A stretch of DNA of 62,269 bases, filler included, from Collodictyon triciliatum (taxonomy: Eukaryota), in NCBI GenBank assembly GCA_043381765.1. It is 14 parts of 14 records of this genome, joined end to end, with 100 filler letters (N's around TTAATTAATTAA, not from the genome) between each part and the next. Parts side by side here need not be neighbours in the genome. Positions count along the whole stretch, not along the records: positions 27,690 to 32,197 come from JBHJMP010006009.1; 13 more parts are not named here. The stretch is one strand, 5' to 3'. The position numbers and the translations under genes were made by a program. The notes below the pieces were generated by a model. The model was not told the origin of the DNA. It worked only from the letters and a program-made list of their open reading frames with translations, and made no database searches. How positions within the stretch are numbered: position 1 is the stretch's first letter; every line of letters begins with the position of its first letter. Positions 27,690 through 62,143 of this stretch are shown in pieces.

Positions 27690-30600
27690 GAGATGCCTCG
27701 ATTCAGTTGAGAAAAATACAGATAATTTCCTGCGTATTGCTACCATTCATGAAGAGATGGGAATCATCTACCAGCAACAGGATAAGTAAGGCTCGTCTGC
27801 AATTATAAATTAAATTATGAATAATGTTTCAAAAAAGGAATTATTCTGATTTGCTTATTAAACAGAATCGATGAAGCTCTTGATGAATATAAGAAATCAC
27901 TGGAGTTGAGAATCAAACAGCTGGGCGAGAACGACTTGCAAGTGGCCCAATCACATGACCGCTTCGGAGACATCTATGTGAAGCAGTCAAAGTAATATTT
28001 AATCATCTATAGACGTTAATATTCTACCCTTTTATTTTGTAAAAATATATTTATGTTGATCAATTTTTTATGATAGGAATGAGCAAGCTCTAGATGAATA
28101 CAAAAAGGCCATGGAAATTCGCCAAAAGAAAGTCGGAAACGAGCATCCTCTTGTCGCAACATCGTACCAGAACTATGGCCATGTCTCTCTGGCTGGGAAA
28201 AAGTAACACATATTCATTCGATTAAAGACAGTTTTAAATCAATTATGGTAATTTTGAGAAATATTAATTATGATTGAATAATTAAGGTATGAAGAATCTG
28301 TTAAAAACTACGAAAAGGCGAAATCAATTCTTGAAAAATTGCTGGGAGCTAAGCATGCATCTGTTGCCTCGACAATCCAGTTTATAGCGAATGTTCATCT
28401 TGCCAGTGGAAAGTTGGAATTTCTAAATTTTTAGATTTTTGAATACAATAATTTTTACTTTCTTTCGAGTTTTGCAAAATGGGTGTGGCTTCATATCTTT
28501 TATTTGCATGGATGCTATTTAGGGTGAAGATTTTTCATAATATAATTGTAGCTATTAAATAATCAATTACTATCTTCTTTTATAGGAAAACTGAGGCCAT
28601 ATCCTCATTAAAGCAATCGCTGTATATTTTCATGTCTGCTCTTGGTGAAAATCATCCGAATGTTATGGCCTGCTATGAAATGATTGGAGACATCAGCCAC
28701 GATTTGAAGGAGTATCTATTTATCAATTATTTTTGTATTTTTAATTAAAAAGAAAAGATTAATTTATTTACCCATATTATTATCATAGCTTTAAGGGTGC
28801 TTTGGAGGCCTATAAAGAGACGCTGGATATTCGCATGAGAACACTGGGCGGAAAGCATGCTGATTATGCGACTTCCCTGGAGAATGTTGGCAGAACAAAC
28901 TTTGAACTTAAAAGGTTTATTTTTTATTTATTAAAAATCGAATATTTTGATTAATAATTTAAAAAATCCATTGAATAATATCTCATATGCTTTATTTAGA
29001 TTTGATCAAGTCGTTGAATACTTCCAGAAGGCAGCTGCTATCAGAAAGGAGACAAAGACTATCATGTCACTGAAAGAAACTCATCAAATTGACAACATTA
29101 TCCGACTCATGAAGGACAAGAAGGAGCATGAAGCCACTATTCAGCTCTACGAGACGCTTATTCATTTATTCAGCAAGCTTTATTCCATGGATTATCTTGG
29201 GATATGGAGCAGCTGCGAAGAAATCGATAAAATTTACAAGGAACTAAAACAGCATAACGAAGCAGTGGAATTCTGGGCTGGGATGAGAGACAGATTCTCT
29301 GATAAAGTTGGGTGGATTCACGCCAGAACATTAAATTCATGCGAATACTTGTCCCTCCATTCAAAAGATATCGGAATCAACAGAGAGCCTGTCGATTTTA
29401 CCAGAGTCAAGGAATTCATCAGTGAAACTATTGATGATGCAAAACTGGATGAAGAATGGAATCGTGAGCAAGTCATTGTATCATTATTCAGAATTGTCTA
29501 CATGTCAAAGACTGATGAAACCAAATCAAAGGTTGCATCTGATGCCATCACACTTTTGAATTTCATGAATGTTTCGTTCGGTGGAATGGATTTATCAAAC
29601 ATCAAAATTCCGCATGCAAATCTCAGTAACTCAATCCTTGATGGTGCAAACTTCACTGGTGCCAACTTGGATGGTATTGATTTGACGAATTCGATGCTTG
29701 GTGATTGTGATTTTGATAATACGAATCTGAAGGATGCGAAGCTTAATATTCCTCACGAAAGCATAAAAGGACATATAGATTGGGTCAACAGTCTTTGTAG
29801 TATCCATGGACTGAATGGTGAAAACTGGCTGGCCTCTGGAAGTCAAGATAAAACAATACTTATTTGGGATGTAGCCACAGGACATCAAATCAAAAAATTA
29901 GAAGGTAATACAGAAGGTGTCAATTGTGTTTGCAATATTCAAGGACCGAATGGTGAAAAGTGGCTGGCTTCCGGAAGTCGTGATAAAACAATACGTATTT
30001 GGGATATAGCCACAGGAAATCAAATCAAAGTAATAGAAGGGCACTTAAGTGATGTAATGAGTGTTTGCAGTATTCAAGGACTGAATGGTGAAAATTGGAT
30101 GGCTTCTGGAAGTGATGATAAAACAATACGCATTTGGGATATTGCCACAGGAAATCAAATCAAAAGATTAGAAGGTCATGCAGACGGTGTCACGATTATT
30201 TGTAGAATTCAAGAACCGAATGGTGAAAATTGGTTGGCCTCTGGAAGTTGGGATAATACAATACGTATTTGGGATGTAGCCACAGGAAACCAATTCAAAA
30301 CATTAAAAGGACATACATGGACTATTTATAGTATTTGCACTATTCAAGGACCGAATGGTGAATATTGGTTGGCTTCCGGAAGTCGTGATAAAACAATACG
30401 TATTTGGGATGTAACCACAGGAAACCAAATCAAAGTATTAGAAGGGCACTTGAGTGGTGTGAGGAGTGTTTGCAGTATTCAAGGACCGAATGGTGAGAAT
30501 TGGTTGGCATCTGGAAGTCGTGATAACACAATTCGAATTTGGGATGTAGCCACAGGAAACCAAATCAAAATATTAGAAGAGCATACAAGGAGTGTCAGGA

Positions 30601-31859
30601 GTTTATGTAGTATTCAAGGACAGAATGGCGCAAAATGGTTGGTTTCTGGAAGTGAGGATAATACAATGCGTATTTGGAACGTAGCTACAGGAAGCCAAAT
30701 CAAAACATTAGAAGGACATACAGGGTATGTCAATCGTCATTGCAGTATTCAAGGACCGAATGGTGAATATTGGCTGGCTTCTGGAAGTGCTGATGAAACA
30801 ATACGTATTTGGGATGTAGGCACAGGAAACCAAACACACAGCCTGCAAAAATCAGAAGTGACCTACACCCAAGGAAAATACCTCGTCAAGAAAGAAAAGC
30901 CAGACGAAGTCATCGCAGTATTCAATAGAACAAGTGATGCGATGAACATGATTGACACCAACAGAGTCCAAGATGCAAATATAGTCCAGATTATGGGCCC
31001 AAGAAAGATGCAAGGTGGAAACATCCAAGTCAGAAATGTCACAGGATTGAATCAATTCAACAAATCCCTTCTACTTTCTATTGGTGCTGCTTCCTTTGAT
31101 GCGGACTTTGTTGCCTATTGCGACCAGGGTAAGTTTACTAAGTTCCAGGCTCAAATGATGGCTGAGTGCTATGAGAATGGATGGGGTGTTGGGAAGGACA
31201 CCGAGAAGGCTTACTTCTGGAGAGTTATCGCTCCTTTGAAATTATCATTAAACTTTGGTGGATTGAAGAATTTAGCACAACAAGGCTCAAAGGATGCATT
31301 CAATGTTTTGGAAGAAATAGCTGGAATGAAGGAAAAAGATTGGAGAGAAAAACACAAGTATCCACAGGCTGCTTCCATTGTTGCTGAGTGCTATGAGAAT
31401 GGATGGGGTGTTGAGAAGGACTCTGAGAAAGAAATCGAATGGTGTGGAAAAGCTGAAAACTTTAATAAACTGAAGGAACTAGCGCAACAAAGCTCAAAAG
31501 AGGCCTTCATTTTTTTGAAAGAAATGGCTGAAATGGAGAAATATGGTGTACAAAAATACCCACAAGTTGTTTCTATTGTTGCTGAATGCTATGAAAATGG
31601 ATGGGGTGTTAATAAGGACATGGAAAAAGCAGCTGAATGGTTTGGAAAAGCTGAAGACGTTGAAAGATTGAAACAATTTGCACAACAAGGCTCAAAGGAG
31701 GCATTCATCGTTTTGAAACAAATGGCTGAAATGGGTGATGATTGGGTATATACATATCCACAGGCTGTTTCTATTGTGGCCGAATGCTATGTGAATGGAT
31801 GGGGTGTTGAGAAGGACACCGAGAAAGCAGCTGAGTGGAGACAGAAAACATCAGCTTAA
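27690..31859 (+). CDS. Multidomain repeat protein: KLC-type TPR array + helical linker + pentapeptide repeats + 8 WD40 + SEL1-like repeats (5' end missing)
   Basis: Exons <27690-27785, 27866-27991, 28077-28202, 28287-28412, 28586-28711, 28789-28914 and 29000-31859, all GT-AG and in frame. TPRs have the LG.nHp.vA.s consensus. The pentapeptide region reads MDLSNIKIPHANLSNSILDGANFTGANLDGIDL. The WD40 unit is GH...V.S.C.IQGPNGE.WLASGS.D.TIRIWD. AECYENGWGV.KD.EKA occurs four times. Confidence 0.92.
29769..30845 (+). repeat. Coding tandem repeat, 8 x 135 bp (45-aa WD40 units)
   Basis: Near-identical nucleotide blocks such as tggtgaaaattggttggcttctggaagt...aaaacaatacgtatttgggatgtagccacagga recur every 135 bp. 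Confidence 0.95.
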
Positions 31860-32811
31860 CAAGGTAAGTAATATCCATAAATGAATAATAATAATAATAA
31901 TAATAAGTGTAATATATGCATTCTTTAATCATATTCATTCTAGAACTAGAGGTTCTTAGGGCTTTTTCAAGCAGACCTTCATTTCTTTCCTAGAAGGATG
32001 CTGCATGAAAAAAGAATAAAATCATTGAGAACGATAGAAAAAACAGATTGATGTCTATTAAATCCTTCTCTCTTTTCTCTCTTTTCTCTTATTTTTTCTC
32101 TTATTTTTTCTCTTATTTTTTCTCTTATTTTTTCTCTTATTTTTTCTCTTATTTTTTCTCTTATTTTTTCTCTTATTTTTTCTCTTATTTTTTCTCTNNN
32201 NNNNNNNNNNNNNNNNNNNNNNNNNNNNNNNNNNNNNNNNNTTAATTAATTAANNNNNNNNNNNNNNNNNNNNNNNNNNNNNNNNNNNNNNNNNNNNTCA
32301 GAATGATAATTCCAGTAATGGATATATTCTTTGATTAATTGTTTGTATTTCTGGAAAATAATATATTTCTCGCCTCATTTAGTCAGATTTTGATAAATAT
32401 TAATTTTGAACTGTTTTTTGCATTAATATGCATTTGTGATTCAACATAATACGCATATTATTGTTTATTTTCACTGTAATTCAATTTAATTTATTAGTTA
32501 CGCAACATAAAGTGAATGTTTTCATTTCTTCTCACTTTGGCATTTTGTGTGATTGAATGAAGAATCCGGAAGATATCACTGCGCCAAACTACGTTTTGAT
32601 TGCATCGCTGCAGTATTGTTGTGAGTGCACGTAACCATATAATCACTGTTCTAAAATAAGAGTCACAGAGACCACCTATGCATATCGTCGTTCGAAAAAA
32701 AATAAAAGGTTTGAAAACAAGAGAATAAGCATTCCAATGGCAAACATCTAAATACGACGAAATGATATTCCGTTCCAGAAAGAAAGAAAAAAGCGTCCAT
32801 CACATAAAATA

Positions 32812-51998: not shown

Positions 51999-54900
51999 TC
52001 AAGTATCAAAGTCTTCGAATTCGTCGTCGTCGTCCTCTTCATCGTATCCGACTCCATCGTGGATGTGTGATTCTCTGTGTTCGTCATCGTATCCATATCC
52101 CGGCACAACAAACTTATCCAATGGATAATTCAAAGAAGCAACCTCCTTCCACTTCCAAATGTGTGAATACTTTGACATAGAAAATACGTGTTCAAAACGA
52201 CTGTCTTTGTGACACGAGTCCTTCACACAGGACTCCGACCCAACCACCAAAGAGTTGTACGAATCGTGCCATCGCAACTGCGTCCCGAATCCCATTCCAG
52301 AGAATGCTTCTGATGGGTGAATGCGACCTATCCGGAGGAAACTTTGGTTTGGACTCAGTGAAAATATGTGCACAGAACCAGAAGCATGTTTCGAAAGCGG
52401 GTCAGACGGGTCACCAATAAAGAGAATATCTCCAAAAACCGACAAGGAATGGCCAAAGTGCAATGAGTGGCTTGAGCATATCTTTTGGACTAAAACCCAT
52501 CCGCGGTCCATATGGAATACGTATATCGCATGCAGGTGCGGGTCGAATGGCTGGTTCCCCACAATGACCCAGTCCGAATTTATGGCGAGTGAATGGCCAA
52601 ACCGGTCTCCGTCTCGAAGATCAGCAGCAATCAGCCGAACTGGATTGCGCGCCCAATCGCCCGTGGATTTCCGACGGAACAGAAATATAGCGCCTGTGTG
52701 CTTGGACAAGGTTTTTGAATGATGGTTGGGTGCCCCAATAACAGCATATATCTCAAAGAATCCTATAGAGTATCCAAACTCTTCATCAGACTGATAGGTA
52801 CGCGAGCGGAGGGTTTCGGGCATACTAAGACAAGTGCGGTCTGAAGTAGAGCGGCTGCTGGATGGCAGTCTGGACGAAGGTGTGAACGATTTTGTGGGGG
52901 ATGGCGTCACTGGTTTAAGGAAAGCCGTGAGTTCTGTATGAAGACAGTCATATACAAACACAAAACTGCCTTCAGAATCATTTGAGTCTGCATTACTTGA
53001 AGAGGCAAAAAGGATGTTGTCTTTGATAAAAAGCCGATTTCCAAACTGTATGTTGCGCTTTGTACTGGGATGTGTAATAATCTTCACAGGATGAATGGGC
53101 ATTTCTGTAGGATGAAAAGGGAGATGTGATGTAAGTGATGCAATCGTGTATACTTCAATCGATCTGTTTTTGCATCCATCGTACGTGACGTTGTTACACT
53201 GGATGCGAGAAAGAATCAAAAAATCTTTAGAGAAGACAAGGGCTCCAACTCCATTATATCCTTGCGCGAAAAACGGATATTTGTGAGATGACGTAAAGAG
53301 AGTAGCAGACTTTGCCTCTTCTTCGCCTGTATTTTTTTTTAAAATAAAATATAAAATTCAGGTTTACGATTCAAATAGAGTACGCTTCATGAATACTATG
53401 GAATACATGGATGAGTTTATTATATATATATATAAAAGGGAGCCTGTGAAACATCATACGAATTTCTAGCATCGGTTTGGGGTAATTGCTTTTTGGGAGC
53501 CCTGCATAAAACATGTTTTCGCTATTCAGAGGCACAAGAGATGATTGTGTCATCGCCAGAGTAAATAAATTATGCCCAAATACTTGAATACGAGACCCAA
53601 ACAGCAACGCATTCTTTCGCATGTTCGACAGCGCACTTGATGAAGGGACAATTCTCTGGACCGGAACCCATCTTCCTGCCTTGAGGGAGCCAATTGAGCG
53701 ATGCCAATCGTACTCGTCTTCAAGTTCTTTATTCTCATATCGAACTCTTCCCTCATCTTTATTTGGTAATGGATACCAGTGATATATGAGAATGTAGTCT
53801 GTAGTACATGTAATGAGAACCTCTCTTTCCCAGAGGGCATTTGTAAAGATTAAATTCTTGCTCAGCCCGGTGTTTCTTTTTGGGTCATTCTTGCGTGCTT
53901 TGATGGCTTTGTACTTATCTACCTCATCCAAGGAATCAAAATCGTTCATAGAGTCCTGGATAGATAGTATCCCTGATTGGATTGCATTTTGCGAGTCTCC
54001 TGGGATGCTATAAATAACCAGATACTTGGCCATGACAGATACAAATCCCCATGGACTGAAGGATAATCCCATCACTTCCGATTCTATCGGGAATATTTTC
54101 ACGAGATTCAGGGTGTGGTATACGTAAATATGACCAGTGGATCCGATTGATATCAAGTCTGCATGGACTGCCAGCGCTATTCCGAATCTTTGGTCTTGGG
54201 CATTTATCGGGTGATATTCGCCTGCAAATAATGGGTCCGGCTTGCCGTATTGAAAGGTATGTTCTGCGGCGAGGCGATAGCGATAAACAGCACCAACACC
54301 TAGTGAGAAGAATGGCGCCGAAATCCATACATTCTGATGAAATCTGTCGATAACAACAACATGACCAAAAGATGCATTGTGAAGTTTAGACTCGTCTTCA
54401 CTTCGTTGGGGTTGCTTGTATGTAGCCCCGTTTTCCTCTGGACCAGCGTTCGGTGTTGGGTTACGTTCGTTATCAAAATCAACGTTATGGTCAATATGTA
54501 ATGATTGTTCACCGTCAGGCCACGGCGGCTCAAGGATAGCCTGCTCCTCCCAAAGTCCCTCACTCTTTTCTGCATACACAAACACAGCTCCGCTGCTGAT
54601 GAGAACGGGCGTGTATACTTGACGCGAGTAGATAAACCGAGGCGCACTTATGTAAAGAGCATCGTCCGAAAATGCCAGGTAAGCACCGAATCCGCTTTTC
54701 TCATGGTCGTCAGTGAGTGAAAGCATCGTTGGAGTATCGCGCCTGCAAAAGAAATCCGGGCTGAAAACTCCTGTCTTTCTCGGGCTGCTGTTAGAGTCGG
54801 GCTTCGGGGTGAGGCTGAATACAAGAACGTGGTTGCTTGAGGCTTGTTGACTGGCATGGATTTTGCCTGGAGAAACGGCGATGTGGGTGGGACTGATGGC

Positions 54901-55083
54901 GATGGCTCGCAAAGGCGAGTCTGTGCTGCATGTGATGTTGTATGTCTCGGCGAACTGCAGCGTGTTTCGGTCGCTCGTGCGTGGCGCGGCAAAGGTCAAG
55001 GGAGTTTTGTTATGGTGGTGGAGAATGTAAAAAAGAGGAAAGAGCGCCCGCAAAAGAAGAAAGAGGCCGCAGCGATCTCTCAT
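51999..55083 (-). CDS. Secreted FG-GAP (integrin-alpha-type beta-propeller) repeat protein, 2 exons, about 909 aa
   Basis: The two listed ORFs join through a GT-AG intron (exon 55083-53460, exon 53104-51999; phase 1, ...LEIQMPIH...). Hydrophobic N-terminus. Repeated FG.sla...l.igap...GAV motifs (FGAYLA..ISAP..SGAV, FGYSIG..IGAP..TGAI, FGHSLS..IGDP..SGSV). Acidic tail. Confidence 0.8.
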
Positions 55084-55147
55084 CTGCCGCCGCGTCCTGA
55101 CGCTGGTCTTTCTGGTGCTTGGCGTAGGAGTAGGAGAATCCCTGCGT

Positions 55148-55239
<92 letters not shown>

Positions 55240-55521
55240 NNNNNNNNNNNNNNNNNNNNNNNNNNNNNNNNNNNNNNNNNNNNTTAATTAATTAANNNNN
55301 NNNNNNNNNNNNNNNNNNNNNNNNNNNNNNNNNNNNNNNTGTTTTTTATGTTTTTTATGTTTTTTATGTTTTTTATGTTTTTTATGTTTTTTATGTTTTT
55401 TATGTTTTTTATGTTTTTTATGTTTTTTATGTTTTTTGTGTTTTATATTTTATATTTTATATTTTATATTTTATATTTTATATTTTATATTTTATATTTT
55501 ATATTATGATTCATTTTACCA

Positions 55522-60141: not shown

Positions 60142-62143
60142 TCAATTTATCGAGCACGCAGCATGATTTGCGGCTCTCTGATTGATTCTTGAATCTTCAT
60201 CTGGTCTTGGCAAAGTAAAACCATCGCCTTGGTCATGCTGTTCATCGCATAAATCGCTGGTATCACCCACCGAATATTCAAATGATGGGATAAAGTAGAT
60301 CTACATGTAAATTGGGTTGATTAAATAACGAGCAGGATGCAAATACAATATGTTTCCTTATTTATTATTAATCCCACATTGTTGTTGCTGACATCCAATA
60401 TTTCGAGTCGATGGAGTTGATTAACGAACACAGGCAAACATGTCAGCTAGTATTTTTCGTTTGTATCTTCAATTTAGAATAATGTTTATTTCAATGAGGC
60501 TTAAAATAAGAAAGTGCGAATATGTGCAAACAGAGGTTTTTATCACACATTCAAATATCAGATTATGCTAAATGTGTTCATTAAGCATATTTTATTGATA
60601 ATTAAAAAGAAAAAATTATCATTCAATTCATCTTCATTTAGTCAAAATCGAAAAAATAATAAAAAAGCAAAAAATAAAAAAATAAGGTGAGGTGTTCCAT
60701 GTTCATGAGTTGGCTATCTTGTATGAATATATTTTCCCCTTGCATTATACCTTGTTGCGACTTAGAGAAAGGTGAGTGAGACTTGTCAGGAGAGAAATTC
60801 TTTCTGGCAATGCTGTCAACCCCATTCTATAAAGACTCAGTGATTGCAGCCCCATTTGATATTTGTTGGGTGCCCAAGTCGGCTCTATGATGTCCTCAAT
60901 CTAATGAAAAGTGATGACGGATTGTTACAGATTTCGTTTGTCCCCTTTATTATAAAAAATACAAGTTCCTACAAAGTCATATAGTTGCAGCTTTTTGAGG
61001 GATTCAGCGACGGTCATACAACCCGGACGCGATTCTGATTGATTCTCCCAGCACGGTAGATTTGTGATTCCACGAGGCGCTGTTCTGATATCAGGATTTG
61101 AGTTATCCACGTCGACAACAAAATTATGTAGCTTTGTAAGATGCACTAATTGCGGAGGAAGCTGCTCGATCTATTTCAACAAGACAATAAAAAAAAAACT
61201 TTCTTCACAAACAACAATATCTCGTTTATGAAATTTATGATATGTTCTGTTTTGTTCAAAGTGGACGCACCGGGTTGCCATGAATCCAAAACTTAGTCAA
61301 GCAGACCAAGAGAGATATCTGAGGAGGTAGATGAGAAATGAAGTTGTCGGATATATCAACCTCTTCAAGAGATTTGAGGCGAGATACATCTGAAGACAAG
61401 AGCATTAATTGGTTGGATGACATCTTCAATCTTTTGAGGCTTTCGAGATGAAAAATGTCAGGAGGAAGCACAGATATTTGATGTCCAGCAATGAAGTCCT
61501 CAAGACGTGTCAATCCCGATACTTGGGACGGGATATTGGAGAGTTTGCAATTGTAGAGGTTCAAATGAACAAGAGCGCCAAGCAACGAGAGTGCTGGGCT
61601 CAGGGATGATATTTTATTGTGCGATGCGTTCAGTAGACTCAGACTTGTTATTTCAAATATTGCTTCCGGTATGGATGATGCTCTGGCATAAGAAATATCG
61701 AGATGCTCAAGAGCCATCAAATTCGAGAAGCTGGCAGAAAGTGAACGAAACGGATTGTAAGACAGGTTGAGCACTTTGAGTCTTGGCAGAGTAATGATCG
61801 AAGCTGGAACATGAACAAAGATGTTATTTGAGATATCGATGCTTGTCAAGTTCGTCAACTGTGAAACTTCAGCTTGGAGTGATATTAGTTTGTTTTTGTG
61901 AACATCGAGTTCCTCAAGTCGGATTAGCTTCGATATCTCTGAGGATAGCGAGGATAAACAGTTGTTGAAGAGAGAGACAGATATGAGCTGGTCCAACTCA
62001 TACACACCCGTCGGAATCCAGGATAGGTTCCTTGAGTCTAGGCCGAGAAATGTGCATCGCTCCAGCGCCTTGAAAATGCCTCGCGGCTCGTAGAATGGCT
62101 GCAGCCTCTTCAGCTCCCGGAGACTCGCCTCGCGGTTCAGCAT
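60142..62143 (-). CDS. Leucine-rich repeat protein (multi-exon, ends uncertain)
   Basis: About 11 typical 23-aa LRRs (LxxLxLxxNxLxxLPxxI) in 61271-62143. Further LRR exons lie near 60975-61170, 60750-60900 and 60378-60446. Confidence 0.88.

Follow-up and report, generated by a model that had tools for sequence, protein, structure and literature searches.

A pentapeptide-WD40 cassette in Collodictyon triciliatum: the likely sensor end of a putative NLR-type receptor, with WD40 and SEL1 repeat DNA common to two gene families

Introduction

STAND proteins that combine a TeTIR/NIR domain (DUF4062) with a NACHT domain include TEP1, NWD1, NWD2, TTC41, and NPHP3 (10.64898/2026.09.21.753143; 10.64898/2026.05.01.722283; 10.64898/2026.09.04.749371). 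The NADase activity of human TEP1 requires motifs containing F902, R914, R942, C959, R976, and E1008 (10.64898/2026.09.21.753143), while several TeTIR domains, among them those of NWD2 and NPHP3 and prokaryotic ones, were weak or inactive in vitro. TeTIR NADases were first characterized in 2026 and their activator is not known. A second group, the HNWD/NWD receptors of Podospora, comprises HET-D and HET-E as well as HET-R (PMC1805685, PMC12222747, PMC13449251). The loops under selection in HET-E are the d-a loop and the b-c turn (PMC1805685), and blade diversification of the HET-E type has been documented mainly in filamentous fungi. A third group consists of the ARM-NACHT-pentapeptide-WD40 proteins of Mortierellaceae and Mycoavidus (PMC11291939).

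Here we describe a gene from the protist Collodictyon triciliatum that carries a pentapeptide-WD40-cap cassette. It lies on contig JBHJMP010006009.1, one of 14 genomic parts joined into the 62,269-nucleotide stretch that was analyzed (the window). The gene piece is the 3' end of a spliced gene whose 5' end is missing at the contig edge. We consider it probable that the gene encodes an NLR-type sensor whose propeller would bind a foreign ligand and whose NACHT domain would switch on a predicted NAD-cleaving head.

Gene structure and annotation

The exon structure, deduced from GT..AG joints and reading frame, consists of a series of TPR exons followed by an intronless last exon encoding, in order, a helical segment, pentapeptide repeats, eight WD40 units, a cap, and SEL1-like repeats (Table 1). 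The original prediction had placed the module at 29500..31090. These bounds were too narrow and missed both the TPR exons (27690-28914) and the SEL1-like repeats (31089-31856). Its pentapeptide motif ahead of the array was found at 29532-29627 and its cap motif behind the array ends at 31088, and the residue series that it quoted (GH-xxxxxx and SGS-x-D-x) are present exactly in the eight 135-bp units.

Table 1. Features of the cassette gene, in window positions.
Feature	Position	Strand	Evidence
TPR exon, truncated by contig edge	27690..27785	+	GT..AG joint 27785>27866, RNA contigs of relatives
126-bp TPR exon 1	27866..27991	+	Pfam TPR_12 E 2e-5; joints 27785>27866, 27991>28077
126-bp TPR exon 2	28077..28202	+	TPR_12 E 1e-6
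126-bp TPR exon 3	28287..28412	+	TPR_12 E 1e-5; joint 28412>28586
126-bp TPR exon 4	28586..28711	+	TPR_12 E 3e-4; joint 28711>28789
126-bp TPR exon 5	28789..28914	+	TPR_12 E 9e-7; GT..AG joint into last exon, RNA runs X1 and X3
Last-exon start, degenerate TPR-like helical stretch	29000..29381	+	Translation; TPR likeness by eye
Helical segment, start of class II likeness	29382..29573	+	phmmer; helices in structure model
Pentapeptide repeats, predicted beta-helix	29574..29750	+	Pfam Pentapeptide E 1.3e-10
WD40 array of eight 45-residue units, predicted to form an eight-bladed propeller	29769..30848	+	Fast-changing positions 4, 5, 7, 26
Linker	30840..31013	+	pLDDT <50 over most of residues 490-549
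Class-specific cap	31014..31088	+	pLDDT 83-88, behind disordered linker; class-specific sequence
SEL1-like repeats, one short and three 198-bp units, variable loops	31089..31859	+	Pfam Sel1, 4 stretches, E 1.4e-21

The RNA runs represent relatives and not the gene's own copy (word share 0.06-0.07). RNA contigs of these relatives splice the predicted introns, including the one between TPR exon 5 and the last exon. The introns around TPR exon 1 are phase-2, and the intron after TPR exon 2 is a prediction from GT/AG and frame that is absent among the 15 RNA joints listed. Tandem repeat analysis (TRF) gave a period of 198 in the SEL1 region, which closes with a stop codon at 31857-31859. In the structure model, the pentapeptide segment has a beta-bridge every five residues (pLDDT 78-93 by block), and the cap likely closes this predicted helix. 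Single-sequence fold prediction did not resolve the flank and cap, atlas matches for the gene scored 0.80, below 0.9, and serve as a lead only, and a wide fold search with the cassette model returned only propellers among the matches listed. A search of the cassette against the sequence database gave 17 matches, only weak bacterial pentapeptide ones. Actin did not place the lineage, with animal and amoebozoan actins scoring equally.

Complete paralogs and their predicted NADase head

The gene belongs to a family (class I) with at least 70 copies in the genome. Complete paralogs (such as the one on contig C1690) carry CH, DUF4062/TeTIR, NACHT, and TPR regions ahead of the cassette, and each of four paralog gene models has 30-31 exons. 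Five to six TPR exons lie upstream in all 20 extended paralogs, and the number is five in nearly all paralogs. Pfam CH, DUF4062, and NACHT/NPHP3_N were matched weakly, exon by exon, with NACHT/NPHP3_N below the cut-off; DUF4062 scored above the cut-off at 41 places in the genome and lies directly upstream of NACHT in the paralogs. The 38 class I rows listed were those in which a Walker A motif or the first TeTIR strand could be located; all 38 had Walker A, and most had Walker B and GxP. The reading as a NACHT-less TPR-WD40 protein was set aside, as the paralogs carry a NACHT domain with an Ala-led Walker A.

By our own count, comparing paralog models with published numbering (10.64898/2026.09.21.753143), the residues F/S/R/R, RWG, Cys, and Arg are spaced as in TEP1. 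Exact spacing matches F902, R914, R942, C959, and R976. An SVT(E/D)YE-type glutamate motif, found in 31 of the 38 class I rows, may be the counterpart of E1008; this match is tentative, as the glutamate lies 58 residues past the Arg in the paralogs versus 32 in TEP1, across a 26-residue insert. All 29 upstream exons tested are under purifying selection (pN/pS 0.12-0.49; 0.17-0.27 for the TPR exons).

The gene's own copy would have the same CH-TeTIR-NACHT 5' half as its paralogs. This half was not found in the assembly, where the best overlapping contig belongs to a 91% paralog, and the copy might then lack NACHT and TeTIR and act by itself, as a TPR-WD40-SEL1 decoy or partner sensor. We regard this as highly improbable, given that the contig begins in the middle of a TPR exon and covers no start codon or promoter region, that upstream DNA is conserved to -6.4 kb among the extended paralogs reaching that far, and that the 91% paralog overlapping the contig start has both TeTIR and NACHT motifs. 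A complete receptor thus stays the preferred reading for this copy. On the model of TEP1, APAF-1, and HET-E, such a receptor would bind a ligand, oligomerize, and deplete NAD+.

Three gene classes and a likely chimeric origin

Three classes of related genes are present in the same genome: class I, the family of the cassette gene; class II, intronless genes of the Mortierella-type NACHT-pentapeptide-WD40 plan; and class III, TeTIR-NACHT-TPR genes that lack the cassette. The class I NACHT is of the TEP1/NPHP3 type, groups with class III (support 99), and has a single 30-residue P-loop match to the class II NACHT (E 0.016). In a tree of 91 columns, class I is monophyletic (90/76) and nested within class II; monophyly of class II was not rejected by the AU test (p 0.059). 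Because the genome also holds class II and class III genes, class I probably originated as an ancient chimera between them. A single early event would have joined the sensor half of a class II gene to a TeTIR-NACHT-TPR (class III) gene. The likely fusion junction lies near 29382; phmmer matches to intronless class II genes begin at query positions 25-38. A database search for the class III NACHT in long fused forms (>1,694 aa) found none, which is weak evidence, and the cassette was found in 0 of the best 150 database relatives of this NACHT.

Variable positions and selection

Positions 4, 5, 7, and 26 of the WD40 unit change fast and are predicted binding-face positions, as the model places them in two loops of the eight-bladed propeller, the d-a loop and the b-c turn, in agreement with the expectation that variable sites lie on a propeller face. 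At these four codons pN is 0.57-0.66, above the framework pS of 0.29, and amino acids differ in 0.89 of unit pairs versus 0.23-0.45 in six neutral simulations. Across 392 units there are 383 distinct five-residue combinations. The claim of hypervariability at fixed positions thus held above chance for 4, 5, 7, and 26, but not for position 28 (K/N/E after D), which, as several other positions, is approximately neutral. The proposed site-specific selection on aligned units appears as pN above framework pS, while a site-wise test on the eight units of the cassette gene alone gave zero significant sites. The codon-model likelihood test is not recombination-proof because two of six null simulations scored LRT 36.9 and 13.7, and likelihood-ratio values alone were discounted after these simulations. 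All-column trees gave omega 2.6-3.3; the values of 9-11 obtained from trees built without the variable codons were rejected as inflated.

A non-immune scaffold, in which blades turn over neutrally and loop codons are unconstrained or hypermutable, would fit the false positives of the codon-model test under simulated recombination as well as the neutral look of position 28 and several others. It is nonetheless very unlikely: positions 4, 5, 7, and 26 change about two times as much as neutral simulation gives, their pN exceeds the framework pS, these sites are the ones selected in HET-E, and at least 70 copies retain conserved NACHT and TeTIR motifs. We therefore keep to the receptor reading, under which the variable propeller face would bind a foreign ligand; the nonself or pathogen sensing that had been proposed would be its putative role. 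The cassette probably serves as the sensing end of an NAD-cleaving, immune-type receptor drawing on a common repeat pool. In this protist, a predicted NADase head would be coupled to a sensor whose distinct binding faces number in the hundreds, and the family offers chimeras for asking what activates a TeTIR-STAND protein.

Repeat turnover and exchange between classes

The eight units share a mean pairwise DNA identity of 78.9% (71.9-87.4%) over 135 bp, so the original description of them as nearly identical in DNA was overstated; with the six variable codons left out, identity is 84.9%. Over 100 aa, internal identity reaches at most 77%, below the HiC cut-off of 85% (PMC4986451), and Psim for the array is 0.79, above the cut-off of 0.70 (PMC13449251). 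Homogenization is evident family-wide and less so within the cassette gene: for seven of the eight units none of the three nearest units is in the gene itself, and the nearest unit of the eighth is elsewhere too. Of 392 units, 356 are closest to a unit of a different gene, and middle units show no positional orthology (0.21 versus 0.19 expected). Array length ranges from 3 to 17 units with a mode of 7 (38 complete arrays), and no identical units occur among 531. There are also natural members that lack WD40 units (C874, C1013).

WD40 and first-SEL1 DNA form a pool common to the two cassette-bearing families, classes I and II, whose flanks and caps have diverged; this is new. Net synonymous divergence between the classes is 0.237 in the flank, 0.010 in WD40, 0.115 in the linker, 0.257 in the cap, and 0.024 in the first SEL1 repeat. 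The commonest codon differs between classes in 0 of 35 WD40 framework columns versus 17 of 48 same-residue flank columns, and 29% of class I unit 24-mers are found in class II units (0.06% for flanks). Older class I units lie at a distance of 0.54 from young ones, and WD40 sites are therefore able to diverge. Since WD40 and SEL1 show almost no net divergence while flank and cap do, the data point to repeat exchange across distant NACHT lineages. Mixing is incomplete, as cross-class pairs of at least 95% identity are rarer (0.8%) than those within class I (2.0%). Ectopic gene conversion and unequal crossing-over would move blades within and between classes I and II, and the pentapeptide and cap would stay class-specific because they likely pack together. 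The cap end LFLQEGA occurs in all nine young capped class II genes and one unclassified gene but in no class I cap.

The same receptor could have obtained its common WD40/SEL1 DNA from a few past whole-array transfers into the ancestor of young class I. Diversity is indeed lower among young class I units (0.196), which fall inside the class II range, than among class II units (0.375), cross-class pairs at or above 97% are about four times rarer than within class I, and no identical units are found across genes. The alternation of diverged flank, common WD40, diverged cap, and common SEL1, however, requires at least two separate tracts. Moreover, 39 cross-class pairs reach at least 97% framework identity (highest 98%), closer than young class I flanks among themselves (nucleotide difference 0.098), and 104 of 139 class II units have a class I unit as their best other-gene match, approximately the class I share of candidates. 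We judge a few old transfers unlikely.

Apparent mixing could also be an assembly or amplification artifact, as the genome is a fragmented short-read assembly in 14,576 contigs and HNWD arrays are known to be misassembled from short reads (PMC12222747). This is very unlikely: no unit among the 531 is used twice, cap type tracks the N-terminal class, a rule that cross-class mis-joins would break, and mis-joins themselves require shared long words beforehand. Continuing exchange remains the preferred explanation. More tentatively, and with somewhat less than an even chance in our estimation, a single genome-wide library of blades and SEL1 repeats may be continually reshuffled by gene conversion between TeTIR-headed and ARM-like-headed families, so that a selected specificity could move between immune outputs and a combinatorial repertoire could exist without multicellularity. 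If exchange between distant NLR lineages holds in long-read data, concerted evolution would extend beyond the single family to families that differ in their effectors.

Comparison with known systems

Class I has in common with the TeTIR/NIR-NACHT STAND proteins a DUF4062 domain directly before NACHT, with the RWG loop, Cys, Arg, and a possibly equivalent glutamate motif (in the paralogs), and C-terminal repeats, with WD40 and TPR both present. Published members end in WD40 or TPR, whereas class I stacks TPR, pentapeptide, WD40, and SEL1 repeats and, unlike them, is led by a CH domain, has at least 70 copies, and diversifies its blades.

With the Podospora receptors, class I has in common the NACHT-WD40 plan, repeat-number variation, d-a loop and b-c turn positions under selection, and repeats shared between genes. 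The proposed likeness to HET-D/HET-E is borne out in the selected loops, which match those of HET-E, but not in the head: the class I gene models show no HET domain and begin with CH-DUF4062. Repeats that are >80% to 100% identical in HNWD genes (PMC12222747) are 79% identical in the array of the cassette gene. Further differences are the TEP1-type NACHT, the 45-residue unit, and a position 28 that is not selected in class I. Exchange between classes I and II spans NACHT lineages with a P-loop match only, whereas published exchange stays inside the NWD family or involves two NB-ARC-TPR genes.

The Mortierellaceae/Mycoavidus proteins contain the same pentapeptide-WD40-cap cassette as class I, and the cassette profile was matched by all 120 database matches listed. 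As predicted, the cassette is of the Mortierella type; the gene itself is not a Mortierella-type NACHT-WD gene, since it lacks the NACHT and ARM parts of those proteins, TPR exons precede its cassette, and its paralogs have a TEP1/NPHP3-type NACHT. An ARM-like domain and a Mortierella-type NACHT before the cassette are found instead in class II genes elsewhere in the genome, which are 23-36% identical to the Mortierellaceae/Mycoavidus proteins over NACHT and cassette. SEL1 repeats behind the cap, present in both class I and class II, set the genes of this genome apart from those proteins. Brown algal NB-ARC-TPR genes, according to PMC13449251, have one repeat per exon, as do the class I TPR regions with their 126-bp exons. 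Class I differs in having a fixed TPR exon number under purifying selection, with its diversity in the intronless WD40 array.

Among the papers listed by a literature search of mainly open-access text, none treated this architecture or an exchange of blades across lineages. On sequence grounds, the gene appears to be a variant of the known NLR-type receptors, with all of its parts known singly and a putative receptor function.

The array and its gene

The WD40 array of contig G000:C6009 is a real feature. Although the residues quoted in the original prediction for its eight 135-bp units are present exactly as given, "nearly identical" overstated their likeness, as pairwise identity is 78.9% (71.9-87.4%). 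The units are 84.9% identical once six variable codons are removed, and the best internal identity over 100 aa is 77% (Psim 0.79). Set beside ordinary WD40 repeats, for which PMC1805685 gives 10-20% protein identity, they are far more conserved, yet not near-identical.

The array sits in a 974-codon open frame with a pentapeptide stretch (E 1.3e-10), eight WD40 units and four Sel1 stretches. Upstream of this last exon lie five 126-bp exons, each with a TPR_12 match, and a sixth truncated by the contig edge. At least five of the six predicted GT..AG introns, with the intron preceding the last exon among them, are skipped in RNA contigs of relatives (likeness at least 82%), taken from two runs guessed to be RNA and one metatranscriptome. 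The loop within each SEL1-like unit of this gene and its paralogues is 11-26 residues long, with 42 different sequences among 43; similar loops are found in classes I and II, and they are a possible second variable surface.

Because the window (1-62269; eukaryotic assembly of 75 Mb, 14,576 contigs) joins 14 unrelated short contigs, 13 of about 4.5 kb, by spacers (N44-TTAATTAATTAA-N44), adjoining contigs are not true neighbours and gene neighbourhood across spacers is meaningless. Actin did not place the lineage, since it scored alike against animal and amoebozoan actins. A frame resembling the leucine-rich one of the window lies beside a class III gene at locus L101.

Coordinates of the array, of other frames in the window and of unusual family members
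Feature	Location	Strand	Description
Array contig G000:C6009	window 27690-32197
Eight WD40 units	window 29769-30848
SEL1-like units	window 31261-31838
Leucine-rich repeat frame	window 61256-62143	-	single 295-codon open frame (Pfam LRR_4/LRR_8)
Probable FG-GAP (integrin-alpha-like) propeller gene	window 51999-55287	-	two consecutive frames; second FG-GAP_2, E 1.5e-16
Frame with TPR-like helices	window 18900-20100	+	GC 73% vs 38% around
L055+L056	G000:C2561:1270-10790		two tandem ARM-NACHT-pentapeptide-WD40 modules sharing a single open frame (3,173 codons or more)
C874 member	L061:5067-5933		pentapeptide + cap, no recognisable WD40 array between
C1013 member	L130:4210-5016		pentapeptide + cap, no recognisable WD40 array between

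Classes and origin of the family

The genome holds at least 150 matches to the cassette (pentapeptide, WD40 array and cap), 78 of these at 70% identity or more, counts that may include alleles. In the 106 cassettes examined, TPR/NACHT exons precede 71 (class I), and a further 22 share an intronless open frame with a NACHT (class II); 13 are unclassed. Four class I gene models with 30-31 exons encode CH, DUF4062, NACHT, TPR, cassette and SEL1 in that order, with at least nine GT..AG joints of the 5' half backed by RNA contigs of relatives. The class II order is ARM-like, NACHT, cassette and SEL1, and proteins of Mortierellaceae and Mycoavidus match this class best (133 matches); the Mortierellaceae group has been tied to transfer from Mycoavidus (PMC11291939). 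A 30-residue P-loop match is the only likeness between class I and class II NACHTs. Class III loci (TeTIR-NACHT-TPR), chosen as NACHT-exon matches outside the cassette list plus one DUF4062 match, had no cassette in any of 20 cases, several stopping after the TPRs and some being cut by contig ends. Of the 150 best database matches to a class III NACHT, none carries the cassette.

A quick NACHT tree (71 rows) united classes I and III in one clade (support 99). In a cassette tree of 91 columns (rows subsampled from 157, 20 database rows as outgroup), the 16 class II rows surrounded a single nested clade (90/76) of 25 class I rows; class II was monophyletic in 0% of 200 bootstrap trees, but the AU test did not reject class II as one clade (p 0.059). 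Class I is likely to descend from a single old joining of a class II sensor half and a class III gene, the sequences favouring addition of the former onto the latter.

Several members depart from these orders. L106 (G000:C1605) has a class I-type 5' half (~80% identical) and runs from TPR directly to SEL1 without the pentapeptide-WD40 cassette, probably through loss, because its NACHT falls within young class I. Judged by the natural WD40-less members C874 and C1013, the propeller may be an insertion into a pentapeptide-cap unit. In class I genes L033 (C997), L045-L046, L048 and L050, ~600 additional bases separate the TPR exons from the cassette; in C997 these bases are a duplicated TPR-helical exon. 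The class III TPR arrays of L094 and L095 (C2347, C1976) consist of near-identical exon-intron units, some introns being readable in frame. Several members, among them G000:C997, C1690 and C1156, finish in an acidic low-complexity tail of Asp/Glu/Gly/Tyr repeats.

Predicted effector head

DUF4062 is described as the TeTIR/NIR NADase domain in 10.64898/2026.05.01.722283, 10.64898/2026.09.04.749371 and 10.64898/2026.09.21.753143. Residues in our gene models were counted against the numbers for TEP1, the human TeTIR-NACHT NADase, in 10.64898/2026.09.21.753143. The class I models have, at TEP1 spacing, the F, S, R, R series, then the arginine of RWG (+28), a cysteine (+17) and the arginine after it (+17). 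The glutamate motif, which may correspond to TEP1 E1008, follows 58 residues further on vs 32 in TEP1; of 38 class I rows, 31 contain it. The TeTIR head of class I is a predicted NADase; not all TeTIR domains proved active in vitro.

Predicted propeller and selection on its loops

A structure model from a 56-row alignment (pLDDT 84.6, pTM 0.75) matched Rsa4 with Z 44.7 and rmsd 2.1 over 335 aligned residues, and the top match of a single-sequence model was a designed eight-bladed propeller (TM 0.89 on target). Strands are predicted at unit positions 6-13, 19-25, 30-34 and 40-44 of the repeat; therefore positions 3-5 would lie in the d-a loop, 7 would open strand a and 26-28 would form the b-c turn. 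By this topology the variable positions would cluster on one propeller face.

In 392 units drawn from 50 young class I genes, entropy at positions 4, 5, 7 and 26 is 3.3-3.8 bits and pN there is 0.57-0.66, vs framework pS 0.29 and pN 0.09; within the window's own units, pN at these positions is 0.64 vs framework pS 0.31. The sharp variation originally predicted at fixed positions thus exceeds neutrality at these four but is near neutral at position 28. A grid codon model on all-column trees gave omega 2.6 (LRT 9.8; sites 4, 5 and 26) for the eight units and omega 2.6-3.3 (LRT 55 and 73) for two 60-unit samples. High LRTs (36.9, 13.7) also came from two of the six null simulations with recombination, so the test is not recombination-proof and we prefer the direct contrast: amino-acid difference is 0.89 at the fast positions vs 0.23-0.45 at simulated neutral sites of similar synonymous depth. 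Purifying selection acts on each of the 29 upstream exons tested, the TPR exons among them (pN/pS 0.12-0.49).

Repeat turnover and probable exchange between classes

Repeat number varies across paralogues, as a comparison of 38 complete arrays showed (3-17 units, mode 7; degenerate units may be missed). Unit identity within genes (82.3%) is only just above that between genes (81.0%). The nearest unit lies in another gene for 356 of 392 units, and middle units have no positional orthology (0.21 vs 0.19 expected), although a within-gene excess, small as it is, reaches significance (+1.5 points, 0 of 500 permutations).

Net synonymous divergence between young class I and 13 young class II genes (139 units) is 0.010 in the WD40 units and 0.024 in the first SEL1 segment, with 0.237 in the pentapeptide flank, 0.115 in the linker and 0.257 in the cap. 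Fourfold-site values are 0.34 in WD40 vs 0.57 in the flank (saturation near 0.72), and 29% of 24-mers are common to both classes in units vs 0.06% in flanks. WD40 sites are free to change, since older class I units have drifted further from young class I units than class II units have (0.54 vs 0.30). Mis-assembly could produce such sharing, but cap type tracks N-terminal class and all 531 units differ from one another, which argues against it. A few past transfers may, less probably than continuing exchange, account for the sharing, because close unit pairs are rarer across classes than within them.

Comparison with known systems

The class I receptor is most likely an APAF-1/HET-E-like switch in which, by analogy, binding of a foreign ligand at the propeller would lead to oligomerisation of the NACHT and then to NAD+ depletion by the TeTIR head. 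The predicted likeness to Podospora HET-D/HET-E would hold for this mode of working, but the family is not an HNWD, since it is without the HET domain. In HET-E, the selected pairs sit in the d-a loop and b-c turn, each flanking a conserved residue (PMC1805685), and positions 3-5 and 26-28 of the modelled window gene would occupy the same loops. Published work on Podospora describes paralogues that exchange repeats (PMC1805685 and PMC13449251), and HIC NLRs occur widely. The literature searched yielded no paper describing this architecture or such exchange across NACHT lineages; the locus adds measured selection and a cross-family blade pool. Among known systems, the receptors can be placed in the TeTIR-NACHT family, where their four-repeat tail is unusual.
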